14,879 nt of DNA from a virus (taxonomy: Duplodnaviria > Heunggongvirae > Uroviricota > Caudoviricetes), in the IMG/VR virus record IMGVR_UViG_2667527789_000019. One strand, written 5' to 3'. Each line of letters begins with the position of its first letter. The stretch's first letter is position 1. A program made the position numbers. Below, one piece after another: positions 1 through 9,000 of the stretch.

Positions 1-3000
1 ATGCGTATAGGACAAAATCGTTTTTTGGGGGCTATACACATGTTGCTTTCAGACCTTGCTATCCGTCGCGCGAAGCCAAAAGAGAAAGCCTATACACTCA
101 ATGACGGCAACGGGCTTTCGTTACTCATTGAGCCGAACGGTTCGAAGGGCTGGCGATTGCGATACAGGTTTGCAGGCAAGCCCAAAATGTTGTCGCTGGG
201 TGTTTATCCTGAGGTGTCCCTTTCTGATGCTAGGACGGCAAGGGATGAAGCCAAAAGGCTTATCGCTGGTGGAGTTAATCCGAGTGAGGTCAGAAAGGCC
301 CAAAAGCGAGAACAGGCGAACAAATGCGGCAACACCTTTGAGGCGATCGCCCGTGAGTGGTATGAAAAACGCCTGGACCGATGGTCTCCCTCATATGCAG
401 AGGAAATGATAGAGACGTTTGAAAAAGACGTTTTTCCGTACATTGGAGGTAGGCCCATCGCAGAGATTAAGCCGATGGAATTGCTCGCGGTTCTATCCCG
501 TCTTAATGACCGTGGCGCAACTGAAAAATTGCGTAAGGTTCGCCAGCGATGTGGCGAAGTGTTCCGGTACGCAATAATTACCGGACGCGCTGAATATAAC
601 CCCGCTCCTGATCTGGCAAGCGCATTTGCACCACACAAAAAAGAGCATTACGCGTATCTGAAAGTTGATGAGCTACCGGAATTTTTCCGCGTTTTTAATA
701 CGTACACCGGAAGCCAGATCGTCAAGCTGGGTATGCGATTGTTGATTCTTACAGGACTTCGCCCAGGTGAATTACGGCAGGCAGAGTGGCAGGAGATTGA
801 TTTTGATAATCGTCTGTGGGAAGTGCCGAAAGAACGAATGAAAATGCGCCGTCCTCATTGCGTGCCACTTTCAGAACAGGCGATCGCTATTCTGGAACAG
901 TTAAAACACATGACGGGGCAGTATCCGTTTATTTTCCCTGGTCGAATACAGCACAGTAAGCCGATGAGTGAAATGGCTATGAACGTGCTTATTCGTCGTA
1001 TTGGCTATGCAGGGCGCGTTACTGGTCATGGGTTCCGGCATACCATGAGTACGATTTTGCATGAGCAGGGTTATAACTCCGCGTGGATAGAAACGCAGCT
1101 GGCGCACGTCGATAAAAACTCGATCCGTGGCACATACAATCACGCGCAATACCTGGACGGACGGCGGGAGATGCTCCAGTGGTACGCCGACTATATGGAC
1201 TCACTGGAACAGGGCGGTAACGTGGTGCACGGCAAGTTTGGTGTATGTGCATAAAAACGACTGGACAAGTATACAGATGTATACTAACGTACACGGAAAG
1301 CTACAGGTAATATCCTTACAGATGGTTTTTCACGCAGTTACCCCATCATGTATGGACGGCGCTCCTTGTAACAACGAAGATGGAGTCTTCTACGCAGCTG
1401 AAAAGCTGGATGCTCTTTAACAGCCTTTGGTGCTTTCCTGATGCAGGAAAGAATAGGGATACATGCACCTTTACAATGCATGTAATGATTCACCAATGAG
1501 GCTGCGGAGCGCTGACAAAGCGCAATTGCTCTCTTGCCTGCCCACCATGCCCTGAAAAAGGGCGCTCTTTAAAACTACTGGACGTCACGCCTAATCGTGT
1601 GACCCCGCCGAAAAGCGGGAATAGCTCTACCTTGCTGGAGCATACCAACCACCAACCAAACAATCTGAATTTATCTTATGCAATACCACAACATGTTTTC
1701 ATGTTGTGGTTTTTGTCGTGTTCGTAATTTGACGCAAATAAAACTCTTGCTAAGCCACAGGAGGGGATTTTCGCGTCAACATTAAGGAGATTGATAAATG
1801 GCTAATAACAATTCATTCATCCGTCTTTCTGAGGTTATGCGCCGTACTGGTTACGGTCGCGCATGGATTTATCGCCTGATCAGCCTGGGGCGTTTCCCTA
1901 AACCGGTAAAAATTGGTTCCCGCTCCGTGGCTTTTATTGAAAGTGAAGTCGACGAATGGATTAACCAGCGTATTGATGCTTCTCGCAACAACGCCGCGTA
2001 ATAATCTTTTGGGAGGGGGATATTCTCCCCCAGCACTAAACCTGATTCGATAGCAGGAGTTTTCAATGAAACGTCCGAATGTGCCCGTACAGGGGCAGGG
2101 CTTCGTTCAGCCTGAAATCAGCCAGAACGATATATTGATTCGCCACAAAGCAGAGTCGCGTATTGATTCCCGCCTGTTTGCTGAACGCATCGGCATAAAG
2201 CACAAAAGCCTTTATTCGCTTATTCAGAAGCACAAAACCGGATTGCGTGAACTGGGTATCCTTCCGTTTCAAACGGAGCGATTAAAAACCAATCAACACG
2301 GAGAGCGTGAACATAAGTTTGCTCTGCTGAATAGCGATCAGTTTGATTACATGCGCCATATCGTGAGCCATTTCGCCGCTGAGCGTATGAAACACGTTAA
2401 GCAATACTTAGAGGAGGTTTTATCAAATTATCGCGCTGGTGGCTCTGTACGGCGCGAATATTTGCATGATGCAGGAATGGCAGGCAAAACAAAGGCGACC
2501 ACGAAAGGGTCGCCAGTGGAGATAAAGGAAATCAAGCGCATCACCAACTATGCCATGAGTGTAGCTGGTGGACAAGGCTATCAGCCAGGCGGTCGGTTTT
2601 TAGTGGCTTTTAACCGCCGTGGGTATTTCTCGACAAAATCTTCAAGGGCAAATCGTTTTTGTGGGTGTTTTTTCACTCCGGGAAGAGGCGTTAACTCTTC
2701 GGGTTCTGATATCTCTTTAGCGCGTTTCAGTTCCAGTTGGCGCTCAAGTATGCGGTGCAAAAGCTGTCTTCGTTGTTCGGCAAAAATATCTGTAATGGAT
2801 TGGTACTTTTTGTTCATGCTGCTGCCCTGTAAAGCAATGCGCCGTAGTACCTCACACCACGGCGCTGATAGTGATTATTCTGATTCTTTGGCCTTGCGGC
2901 GCTGGCGGCGTTTGATCTCGCCTCGCATGGCTGTAACGATAAATTGCGCAGTGCTCTCGCCTGTTTCTTTTACTTGCTCCATAGCCTCAACAACTTCATG

Positions 3001-6000: not shown

Positions 6001-9000
6001 GGATGAGCAGGTTTGCCCCTGTCAATTATGACCCCGCCAGTCTGCCGATTCCTGAACTGTACGGCTACAGGGAAAGCGACGGGCGTTATGACGAACCTGT
6101 TTTGTTCTACGTGCTGCCGGATCCGTTCGGCTCACATGTGGCGAATGGATTTAACAAGGATGCCGCGGCAAAAGTTCTTCATGAAGCCGGAATGCTGAAA
6201 AGACCATCCAGCGGTCGTGGGTGGCAAATCAGGACACCACGGCTAAAACACCTGAAAGGGGCGCGCCTGAGAGTGTACGGCCTTTTGCTGGCGCAGGACC
6301 ACGACACGGAAAGCGATTAATCTCGCGTATAGGCGATGAAAAAATGTTGTCCCAGTTGTCCCACTACGTATTAATTGATTGATTTTACTAAAAATACAAT
6401 AAAAAAGTGGGACAACATTACAGCATTTTGGGACGACATCGGGGTATTTTGGGACGACATAGCGACATTTTGGGACGACACAACGAGCGTTAATTACCCT
6501 GGCTGGTGACTGGGACAACATAAAACCCCTCATGTTGTCCCAAAATCGGCTAATGTTGTCCCAGTTTTCGGAGTGTATTTTTAATTAAATCAATGGATTA
6601 TGTGTAAGTGGGACAACTGGGACAACTGGGACGACGTGTTTTTGTATATATATAAAAAAATAAATTGAGAGGATGAATTCATGAGTGAAATTACTGTTAA
6701 AAATATCTCACCTGCGGTAGCTGGCTGGTGGGCGAAGTTCAGAGACGACGACGGCACGGAATGGTACAGCCCGATTGCTGCATGGGCGCTTTGTGAGGTT
6801 GATTATTTCGGTGCGGGGAACACCCGCCGCGAAATCTTACCCGTGCTGACCAGTGAGCTTGGTATGGGTTCGCACCCATCCGATGAAGGCTATTGCGCGT
6901 GTCTGTATCTGCCTGATGAAAAGTTCACGCTCTCAGGTGAGCAGGGGTCTTTTGCCTGGTATCCGGTGAACAGCAACAGTAATAACGGCAATTCGGGGGC
7001 TGAATCATGACGGCGAAGCACACAAAAAACCATAATTCCGTGGTGAAGTTCGTATCTGCCCGTGGCAGGCCAACGCTTTTAGTGCCAGGAAAACATCTGC
7101 ATTACTGCGATGAAAATCATATCCCGATCGTGATTGTCTGGAAGCGAACGGTATACGCCGATGTGACATGGCTGTATGACTCGCTGGCGTTGATGCACCG
7201 TGACCTGTTTGAGCGTGAAGAGTTCCGGCTGAATATTGAGGAACGGGCAGAAAAAATCTATGAGCAATATGCAGCAAACAGCAAAAGAGCCGCACGGGCA
7301 ATCACTCACCATTTCATGACGCTGTATGACCTGAAAGCAGAAGATGCAGAAAAAGCGGCATGTGATTTATTCGATATGACAATGGGTATTATCCAGGAGT
7401 ACCGGAACAGGGAGCGCAGACCATGACAGCACAGATTGCAGCTTACGGGCGGCTGGTGGACGACCCGCAGGAAAAACAGACCAGCAAGGGCACACCGATG
7501 ACGCTGGCGCGTATGGCGGTATCTTTGCCATGCAGTCAGGCACAGGACGGACAGGCGACGTTATGGCTATCAGTCCTGGCATTTGGTAAGCAGGCCGACG
7601 CGCTGGCGAGACATGAAAAAGGCGACCTTATCAGCGTGGCGGGTAACATGCAGATCAGTCAGTGGACCGGACAGAACGGAGAAATACGGCAGGGCTGGCA
7701 GGTTATCGCTGACAGCGTAATCAGTGCCCGTTCGGCGCGTCCTGGCGGGAAGCGGGGGCAGCAGGGGAAGGCGACCGAAGCACTGGACAGAGCAAAACGA
7801 CAGACCGGACAGCAGGGAAATCAGCCACCAGCGGGAGGTGATGACCCTTACGGTGATGATATTCCGTTCTGAGCGACAGGAGCACAACATGAACCAGCAG
7901 ACCACACAACAGGACCAGACAGTACGTAAACCATCACGGCGCATACCGTGGCAGCACATGACAAAGCGGCAGCGAAAAAAACCACAGACGGATTAACCGC
8001 CTGGCTGAATACTGGCCCGAGATTTTCAACGTGGAGAATATGAAGCCCCTGAAAACTGGCGTGATCCGTGATGTGCTTAAGGACGCTAAGGAACGGGAAT
8101 TGCCGATTGGTCACGGCGTATTGCGCGGCGCGTTAATATCGTATATCCACACAACCAGATACCTGAATGCTGTTATCGCTGGTGGTGCTCGGTATGACCT
8201 GAACGGGCAGCCTTGCGGCGAAGTCACGGAAGAAGATAAATCAGTCGCCAGTGAACTACTGAAACGGAGACTGGCGCAAATTAAGCAGCAGAACAGCCAG
8301 CAGCAAACAACCGGAGACGATGGTGATGATAGCTGACAGCGTGGCACAGAAACTTGAGGAGCGCGGTTTATGGCGACGTGCGGCGACCCGATGGACTGAG
8401 GTTCTTCTTCATGCAGAAACGGACAGGGAACGCGAGGAAGCTGCCAGACGTCGGGCGATATGTATCATTAAATCCCGTCGTATGCCTGAGCAGTTCGTCA
8501 CCTTTGGCGATGTGAAAAAGGCCGCTGACAGAACGCTGGCAGAGATGGGGATTAATCCACAGGATGAATGGCGAAATTACAGCTTCAGTGATGCAGGCGA
8601 CGATTTAGCGCTACCGTGATACGCATCTCATTGCCGCATTTGCTCAATTATCGCGATTCGCTATAATCACCACCGAAAAGCCGTTGATGGTGTTCTCCTC
8701 GGGCAACTGGAGCCCGACTGAATGAAGCCATTCAACGGTTTTTCGGCACTCATTCCGGTGTATCTGATCCCACACATCGGGATGAGTGAACGACGAAAAC
8801 ATCACGGTGATTTCGTCATGCCGCGATAAGAATGTTCCCCTTTGGGCAACTGGAGCCCTCTGTGCAGAAGGTTATCGCGGTCAGGTTGTGATAAAAACGC
8901 GCCTCTTTGAGCAATTGAAGCTCACTGTAAAGCGGCTTATCACAGCAGGCTGTAGCGGGTGCTCATCTCTGGGCAACTGAAGCCCTCTGTACAGAGGCCC

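Follow-up and report, generated by a model that had tools for sequence, protein, structure and literature searches.

The window analysed here is a stretch of 14,879 nt assigned to the Caudoviricetes (IMG/VR record IMGVR_UViG_2667527789_000019), whose positions 1-6665 hold integration, control and replication genes resembling those of the phage-inducible chromosomal islands (PICIs) of Gram-negative bacteria. The sequence is 100% identical to NZ_AP045170.1 (Escherichia coli JNEC-KY174, a clinical isolate from Japan) and to two other genomes, and window-identical copies come from isolates from Japan and from food and human sources. Flanks were obtained by adding 12 kb on each side of the NZ_AP045170.1 locus (L001), so that a window position equals the L001 position minus 12000. 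Two elements served as the main references. EcCICFT073, the prototype Gram-negative PICI (PMC6092414, PMC6739421), is the island between roxA and phoQ of E. coli CFT073, and its gene order was taken from that locus. The capsid-forming PICIs (cf-PICIs) of the EcCIEDL933 type (10.1101/2022.09.08.507074) are represented by a 15-kb element of O157:H7 strain F8092B (L004), assigned by published gene content. The survey set consisted of 55 IMG/VR loci encoding relatives of the window replication protein (Rep).

Gene content and replication origin

Nearly all large open reading frames (ORFs) of the window lie on the plus strand. At the left end, a P4-family tyrosine integrase (40..1254, +; 404 aa from the start called by PGAP, in a frame open from position 1) carries the Pfam domains Arm-DNA-bind_3, Phage_int_M and Phage_integrase and aligns with P4 Int over 406 aa at 38% identity (E=1e-88). 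The gene is followed by an intrinsic terminator with an 11-bp stem and a T-run (1685..1710, +), which would place the downstream alpA on its own transcription unit. The encoded AlpA/Vis-family winged helix-turn-helix protein (1798..2001, +; PF05930, E=1.7e-20) is 45% identical to P4 Vis and 42% to the AlpA of EcCICFT073, and is presumed to act as master activator and excisionase. An integrase gene at the left end, a co-oriented alpA downstream and essentially rightward transcription are shared with described PICIs (PMC6092414).

The region between alpA and the replication gene is occupied by a series of small genes. A remnant of a Rha-family (antirepressor-type) gene (2066..2400, +) retains only weak matches to the Rha N-terminus. 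Strain JNEC-KY202 carries a closely related island at the same site (L005), with an intact 239-aa Rha gene and an AntA/B fragment. Window positions 2208/2313 join L005 4209/5107, and the Rha/antirepressor gene is recognized as deleted in the window because L005 4210-5106, about 900 bp, is lacking there. In relatives the position is filled by an intact antirepressor, Rha or AntA/AntB, a possible helper-derepression function that the window island has lost. Two small minus-strand genes follow, both also found in EcCICFT073 and the only exceptions to the plus-strand orientation of the backbone. One (2581..2817, -) is called by PGAP, has its own terminator (2514-2494) and is 100% conserved in L005. 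The other, likewise annotated by PGAP, belongs to the YlcI/YnfO family (2875..3054, -; phrog_949, E=3.4e-27; terminator 2865-2839), a conserved member of the E. coli PICI backbone with 68% identity to the EcCICFT073 gene in the same position. A divergent promoter-like region is predicted between ylcI and the plus-strand genes (3116..3165), consisting of consensus-scan matches only (TTGAAG-18-TATACT on the plus and TAAACA-16-TATAAT on the minus strand).

The rightward operon comprises icd, orf61, orf67, DUF4222 and rep. The Icd-like gene (3173..3451, +) matches phrog_6196 over its full length (E=6.5e-36) and NF033153 phage_ICD_like (E=1.9e-14), with PGAP calling just 3320-3451, and shares 58-61% identity with its counterparts in EcCICFT073 and the O157 cf-PICI. 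Two small conserved ORFs of 61 and 67 aa (3444..3832, +; phrog_3672 and phrog_1478) show 63% and 43% identity, respectively, to O157 cf-PICI genes in the same position. The DUF4222 gene (3890..4185, +; PF13973, E=1.7e-23, Pfam match 3890-4150) precedes rep in 50/55 related loci and is marked by PGAP as frameshifted near its 3' end in the window. A 461-aa ORF spanning 2066-3451 was rejected as a real regulator. PGAP does not call it, and it is a composite artefact in which the first ~95 residues are a weak Rha match left by the deletion, the last 92 are the full-length Icd-like protein, and the middle is the antisense of the two terminated minus-strand genes (2581-2817, 2875-3054).

The replication gene (4182..6320, +) encodes a 712-aa protein with a DUF927 domain (Pfam) and a match to phrog_1139 'DNA primase' (E=3.5e-144). 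A TOPRIM-like primase-type N-terminal domain is fused to a DUF927 helicase. The best matches of a structure model of the N-terminal domain are DnaG, T7 and Twinkle primases, suggesting a TOPRIM likeness at modest Z. The DUF927 core matches the model of the SCCmec Cch helicase (NF047345, E=1.3e-9) and the PDB entries 8tch 'pathogenicity island protein' (E=1e-11) and 5dgk (Cch), which relates the Rep helicase to the self-loading type of Staphylococcus aureus pathogenicity island (SaPI) Rep and Cch. The first ~160 aa of Rep (window 4182-4660) form a separate module also present in the EcCICFT073 primase (42% identity). This module is mobile, and in E. coli islands it is joined to no fewer than three kinds of helicase (D5_N, AAA_25/RepA-like and DUF927).

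The predicted replication origin (6345..6636) sits in a 360-nt gap directly after rep and is built from 12 iterons TGGGACRAC around AT-rich spacers. All 12 copies of TGGGACRACA (at most 1 mismatch) fall within these 292 bp and none elsewhere in the window, compared to 1.8 expected, and 0/200 shuffles reached 12. From left to right, the array shows an inverted pair, an AT-rich spacer, five direct copies (four of them at 21-nt spacing), a second inverted pair with another AT-rich spacer, and a direct triplet bordered by an AT-rich tract. A primase-replication gene followed by iteron sets around AT-rich DNA is a further PICI feature (PMC6092414) that the window appears to share. Among relatives, the same TGGGACRAC array is found just 3' of rep in loci whose Rep shares 75-86% identity with the window protein, and loci at ≤73% lack it. 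Such co-variation of Rep allele and iterons is what a cognate Rep-origin pair would predict.

Variation in the replication module was seen in two further islands. The glyU islands of the window and L005 share 95-99% identity across int, alpA and the right arm, yet have unrelated Rep proteins (44% aa identity) and different iterons (window 4182-6680 compared with L005 7402-9540). The replication module has therefore been exchanged as a cassette. In the tRNA-Pro island of E. coli 042 (L003), the iteron variant TGGGACAAG occupies L003 11450-11590 and 13735-13880. The two origin halves flank a block of genes for a single-stranded DNA-binding protein (SSB), ProQ and PerC, which suggests either insertion of this block into an originally continuous origin or a naturally bipartite one.

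Genes of the backbone continue beyond position 6665. Two ORFs of 109 and 139 aa (6681..7426, +) are translationally coupled to ssb. SSB itself (7423..7872, +; PF00436, TIGR00621) is 77% identical to both the EcCICFT073 and the O157 cf-PICI SSB. A ProQ/FinO-domain gene (8031..8336, +; PF04352, E=5e-19) and a gene for a PerC-family regulator (8320..8619, +; PF06069, E=7e-29), 39% identical to the EcCICFT073 PerC, complete the block. PerC belongs to the E. coli PICI gene set (PMC6092414, PMC11773190).

Boundaries of the island at glyU

No tRNA gene lies within the window. In the source genome, a tRNA-Gly gene (glyU, L001 11802-11875) ends 126 nt upstream of window position 1. Its 3' end, GTTCGATTCCCTTCGCCCGCTCCA, forms the attL core (window -149..-125, outside the window). 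Near-copies at window 12472-12495 and L001 30887-30910 bring the number of att copies to three. The copy at 12472..12495 (+) represents attR and is a degenerate tRNA-Gly 3' end with 2 mismatches and a 1-nt deletion relative to attL. The att copies delimit a 12.6-kb island in the glyU 3' end of the E. coli chromosome, a discrete element within the ~10-15 kb size class of PICIs (PMC6092414). A 22-nt double repeat, GTGTATAGWAATGYGTATAGGA, provides a second mark of the ends. It occurs exactly twice in the 38.9-kb locus in the same orientation, with 0 copies expected by chance, and one copy lies just inside each end of the 12.6-kb unit. The left copy, GTGTATAGTAATGCGTATAGGA, covers window -9..12 (+; its right part is 1..12) and the right copy, GTGTATAGAAATGTGTATAGGA, covers 12400..12421 (+). 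The paired repeats look like arm-type sites of the integrase.

Other strains confirm the right boundary. Many genomes match the window up to 12495 only. Homology with strain 2015C-3121, which carries the 12.6-kb unit alone at glyU and adjoining ETT2, ends exactly at attR. The downstream flank of 2015C-3121 and the DNA that follows the third att copy of the source genome are 99.9% identical. The source genome therefore holds two islands in tandem, with glyU on one side and ETT2, a type III secretion locus, on the other. The flanks of the 12.6-kb island are thus tRNA-Gly on one side, and a 6.4-kb second integrase island and ETT2 on the other. The second island uses the same tRNA-Gly att site and runs from window 12496 through 14879 on to L001 30910. 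It opens with a 532-aa tyrosine integrase (12630-14228) followed by a 202-aa ORF, and is absent from 2015C-3121.

These results bear on the preliminary description, which had placed the order int, alpA, small regulators, replication gene and iteron origin in a PICI- or P4-like satellite with a tRNA gene just upstream. The integrase, alpA, replication gene and iterons were recovered in this order on the plus strand (Pfam, PHROGs, motif scan), and the tRNA gene was found where it was expected. The 'small regulators' exist as genes, but not as regulators in a demonstrated sense, since they consist of the Rha remnant, two minus-strand genes, the Icd-like gene, two ORFs and the frameshifted DUF4222 gene. 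A lack of att repeats, or a location within a larger conventional prophage, had been named as findings that would speak against a satellite. Neither applies, because att repeats exist and no conventional prophage surrounds the island.

Relationship to characterized satellites

The backbone of EcCICFT073 has the same order and orientation as the window and a similar size class. Its genes run from int through helix-turn-helix/AlpA, two small minus-strand genes with YlcI/YnfO among them, icd-like, small ORFs and DUF4222 to the primase-helicase, and an iteron origin, another small ORF, SSB and PerC follow. Identities to the window by tblastn are 26% for int, 42% for alpA, 68% for ylcI, 58% for icd, 63% for DUF4222, 42% for the Rep N-terminus, 77% for SSB and 39% for PerC. 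The two elements differ in several respects. The window island sits at glyU, and EcCICFT073 is inserted beside roxA/phoQ and has an only distantly related integrase (26%). The helicase part of EcCICFT073 is of the D5/primase family and not DUF927, and homology is confined to the first 160 aa. EcCICFT073 lacks a ProQ/FinO gene and Q, both of which are present in the window island. Downstream of PerC it has capsid-like and decoration genes and genes for proteins of 144 and 93 aa. The 144-aa protein matches RppA in published length and position, has no counterpart in the window, and its gene is surrounded by two exact lambda cosN sites, which are absent from the window island. The CFT073 island fits the published EcCICFT073 with RppA (144 residues) and cos1/cos2 (PMC6092414, PMC6739421).

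The EcCIEDL933-type element (10.1101/2022.09.08.507074) shares 11 collinear homologous genes from int to PerC at 25-77% identity, and its Rep is also of the DUF927 type, 68% identical to the window Rep. Further genes of the cf-PICI encode capsid, protease, portal, connectors, HNH, TerS and TerL. The window has none of them, and the island does not belong to the cf-PICIs. The collinear backbone homology to EcCICFT073 and to L004 ties the island to experimentally characterised PICIs. The closest Rep (85% aa identity) is encoded by the 042 proL island (L003, 8 kb, tRNA-Pro), which also has SSB, ProQ and PerC and no structural genes. It differs by the lack of Q, another integrase and att site, and the split origin. 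An island between yicC and dinD of O157:H7 strain M1300706002 (L066) has the icd-to-DUF4222 block, the SSB-ProQ-PerC-hairpin block and an identical Q in common with the window island, combined with a different integrase, AlpA, att site and primase. L003, L066 and EcCIMP1 (PMC11773190; 20 kb, tRNA-Thr, another integrase), the last of these likened by its published description, are PICI-like islands without capsid genes that have a right arm of the SSB-ProQ/FinO-PerC type.

We conclude that window 1-6665 is very probably the left half of a 12.6-kb Gram-negative PICI-family island, encoding its integration, control and replication functions with the module roles given above. The PICI reading of the preliminary description is backed by homology and synteny with both EcCICFT073 and the EcCIEDL933-type element. 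The control and replication module is ordinary, a further set of alleles (glyU integrase, DUF927 Rep, TGGGACRAC iterons) in a well-described E. coli PICI backbone. The same backbone recurs across the 55 surveyed loci with alternative right arms. A cf-PICI packaging module is found in 21-23 loci, EcCICFT073-type capsid and decoration genes in 12, and neither in about ten, among which the window island falls.

The lack of recognisable morphogenesis or packaging-interference genes, noted in the preliminary description, holds and extends to the whole 12.6-kb island. The capsid, decoration, hyp137 and RppA candidate proteins of EcCICFT073 had no tblastn match in the island, and hyp93 is represented only by a degraded remnant. 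No cf-PICI capsid, portal or terminase was found by tblastn in L010, the IMG/VR locus identical to the window, nor were such Pfam domains. No lysis, tail or structural genes occur among the window ORFs (Pfam, PHROGs, PGAP). A lambda cosN is absent from the window at ≤2 mismatches, apart from one chance-level site. With no capsid, terminase, Rpp or lambda-type cos, the island therefore either relies on an unrecognised signal in the helper or is no longer transferable.

Mobility, decay and alternative origins

The life cycle of the island can be proposed by analogy with characterized elements (PMC6092414, 10.1101/2022.09.08.507074, PMC11773190). The lytic cycle of a helper phage would switch on alpA. 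AlpA would then auto-activate, turn on the rightward operon and, together with Int, drive excision. Rep would bind the iterons, melt the AT-rich tract, load itself and prime replication of the circle, assisted by SSB. Two predicted features fit regulation by AlpA, namely the terminator at 1685-1710 and the divergent promoter-like region at 3116-3165.

We give about even chances to the island still being an active satellite mobilised by a helper. Several observations weigh against both the PICI assignment and continued activity. The attR is imperfect, the Rha/antirepressor gene is lost, DUF4222 is frameshifted, the terminal PICI gene is degraded (see below), and coding density drops to ~39% after PerC (8620-12495), all of which are signs of decay. 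Capsid morphogenesis genes, TerS, Rpp and a helper-type cos, which make up the packaging and interference functions of PICIs, are missing. SatelliteFinder defines a PICI by at least 4/5 of int, regulator, pri-rep, capsid morphogenesis and terS, with no tail or holin genes (PMC10085698). Counted against these published criteria, the island has 3/5 core components (int, alpA, pri-rep). It falls into 'Type C', a category set aside as ambiguous by the authors (de Sousa et al. 2023, PMC10085698). The predicted attP junction, GGTGGCATGGCTTGTT-(tRNA 3' core)-AACAAACATCTACC, had 0 exact matches in IMG/VR and JGI metagenome contigs, which is weak evidence because the island is rare.

A possible but less probable explanation is that the island is a decaying, non-transferable PICI remnant kept in Shiga toxin-producing E. 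coli (STEC) lineages for its regulators (PerC-family, ProQ/FinO, Q), hence a fixed regulatory island. The deleted, frameshifted and degraded genes, the imperfect attR, the missing packaging module and cos site, the low coding density and the phage ant-gene fragments in the right arm would all follow from such decay. A comparable element of E. coli 042 gave no transfer when tried (PMC6092414). However, the island retains intact Int, AlpA, Rep, SSB and Q together with the 12 iterons and both arm repeats. The window-identical copies in isolates from Japan and from food and human sources are also difficult to reconcile with a remnant, as are the modules exchanged with islands at other att sites, which imply that active relatives have recombined recently. 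Mobilisation is still possible for a PICI that has no phage-like structural genes, as EcCIMP1 illustrates (PMC11773190). Intact Int, AlpA, Rep, origin and arm sites speak for an active island, and the deletions, the frameshift, the degraded gene and the missing packaging functions for a decaying one.

Three further explanations compete with a PICI-family origin. The island could be a self-replicating integrative element and not a phage satellite, moving by generalized or lateral transduction or by conjugative mobilisation. SSB and ProQ/FinO-domain proteins are also typical of the leading regions of conjugative plasmids. The island carries both types and has no recognisable packaging function. 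We consider this improbable, as Pfam and PHROGs scans detected no relaxase, oriT or coupling protein in any ORF, and the whole backbone is common to elements shown experimentally to be phage-inducible. Much less credible still is a P4-like satellite of P2-type helpers. P4 shares the integrase family (38% identity), Vis/AlpA (45%), insertion at a tRNA 3' end, arm-type repeats and an iteron origin bound by a primase-helicase. The tblastn search with all 13 P4 proteins returned only Int and Vis/orf88, and alpha, epsilon, sid, delta, psu, cI and cII had no counterpart. Gene order differs, and Rep is of the DUF927/SaPI-Rep type and not P4 alpha. Of the P4 core set (int, psu, delta, sid, alpA, epsilon, alpha), 2/7 components are present. 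The island is therefore not P4-like in the family sense, and the 'P4-like' label given earlier holds for the integrase and AlpA/Vis and fails for the rest. That the window is the left end of a larger conventional prophage has a negligible probability. A phage-type Q gene and phage ant-gene fragments within the island could be taken to suggest it, but the att copies bound a 12.6-kb unit flanked by tRNA-Gly, the 6.4-kb integrase island and ETT2. Strain 2015C-3121 carries the island alone next to ETT2, structural, lysis and tail genes are missing, and the flanking sequence refutes a prophage end.

A Q antiterminator in the right arm

The right arm of the PICI-family island encodes an apparently intact Q antiterminator of 130 aa (10412..10804, +; PF06530 over the full length, E=2.5e-50). 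The protein shares 88% aa identity over 126 residues with the Q encoded directly upstream of stx2AB in phage VT2phi_272 (Stx2a), and is of the QuuD length class. Nothing in the window is similar to the 520 nt that follow Q in VT2phi_272 and hold the pR'/qut/tR' elements of Shiga toxin (Stx) phages. An identical Q protein is encoded in the second PICI-like island at yicC-dinD (L066 13001-13393). The exact Q allele was found in 30 genomes, and 28/30 hold a second Q-family match (one more holds an island-Q variant). Among all 5426 genomes, 657 contain a Q of this family. This supports an association of the Q allele with Stx-type or lambdoid prophages, one confounded by STEC ancestry.

Q is the sole recognisable phage-directed function of the island and could act in trans on the late promoter of a resident lambdoid prophage. 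On induction, the satellite Q would allow transcription past the late terminator of an Stx-type or lambdoid prophage in the same cell. Read-through would supply virions and lysis to the island, with raised Shiga toxin expression in trans as a side effect. A satellite-borne Q would be conceptually analogous to P4 delta, which transactivates P2 late genes. The glyU and yicC-dinD islands might thus represent a capsid-less PICI sub-lineage exploiting helpers via a captured lambdoid Q in place of remodelled capsids or redirected terminases, an idea which we regard as rather unlikely. The literature collection searched contained no description of a PICI or satellite with a Q antiterminator, nor of this glyU island. 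If Q acts on resident Stx prophages, it would constitute both a new satellite strategy and a chromosomal modifier of toxin output. The right arm is hence the part of interest to specialists, with STEC islands of PICI backbone lacking known hijacking genes and carrying PerC, ProQ/FinO and an Stx-type Q.

Further features of the right arm

Five tandem extended hairpins of ~65 nt (8676..9075, +) with the apical loop AAYTGRA lie directly after the ProQ/FinO and PerC genes. The motif has 5 matches vs 0.09 expected, and the RNA fold has z=-7.95. The hairpin cap G-N-GC / AAYTGRA / GC-N'-C shows covariation of N/N' (G-C, G-C, A-T, G-C, T-A). The outer stems differ in sequence and keep self-complementarity, and the first and last hairpins end in U-runs. 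No Rfam family matched the array, and the search gave one sub-threshold chance match. Among 66 loci compared, the array is confined to the glyU-island lineage, and one hairpin unit also occurs inside a giant Stx-phage ORF. One possibility is a structured RNA, which the ProQ/FinO protein encoded next to it might bind.

The terminal PICI gene (9753..10116, +) is degraded to a 53-aa ORF and an out-of-frame C-terminal remnant. The gene encodes 93 aa in EcCICFT073, where it is the last gene, and 105 aa in L066, where it is intact, and is present in 23/55 related loci. The ORFs of 109 and 139 aa upstream of ssb had no Rpp match in PDB searches, and orf139 gave a confident structure model with no informative structural neighbour. 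PADLOC recognized no defence systems among the unassigned ORFs. Comparison of the non-coding right arm with phages returned only short ant/antirepressor fragments and the one hairpin unit, and no helper was identified. At the right end, two minus-strand ORFs of 124 and 105 aa (11636..12464) have no Pfam, PHROG or PADLOC match. The 124-aa ORF is called by PGAP, and conservation in L005 is 100%.

Two additional repeat regions were observed. Positions 9424-9605 contain two sets of 12-nt repeats (TGCGCAAAAAA + N), ~115 nt apart and overlapping a low-complexity 79-aa ORF (hypothetical in PGAP). The repeats might be protein-binding sites instead of coding sequence. Positions 11120-11380 contain two 42-nt direct repeats, each with the perfect palindrome TTACGAAAATTTCGTAA, adjoining short stretches that match the 5' parts of phage ant/antirepressor genes at 80-90% identity. 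These positions resemble the remains of a phage immI-type region.

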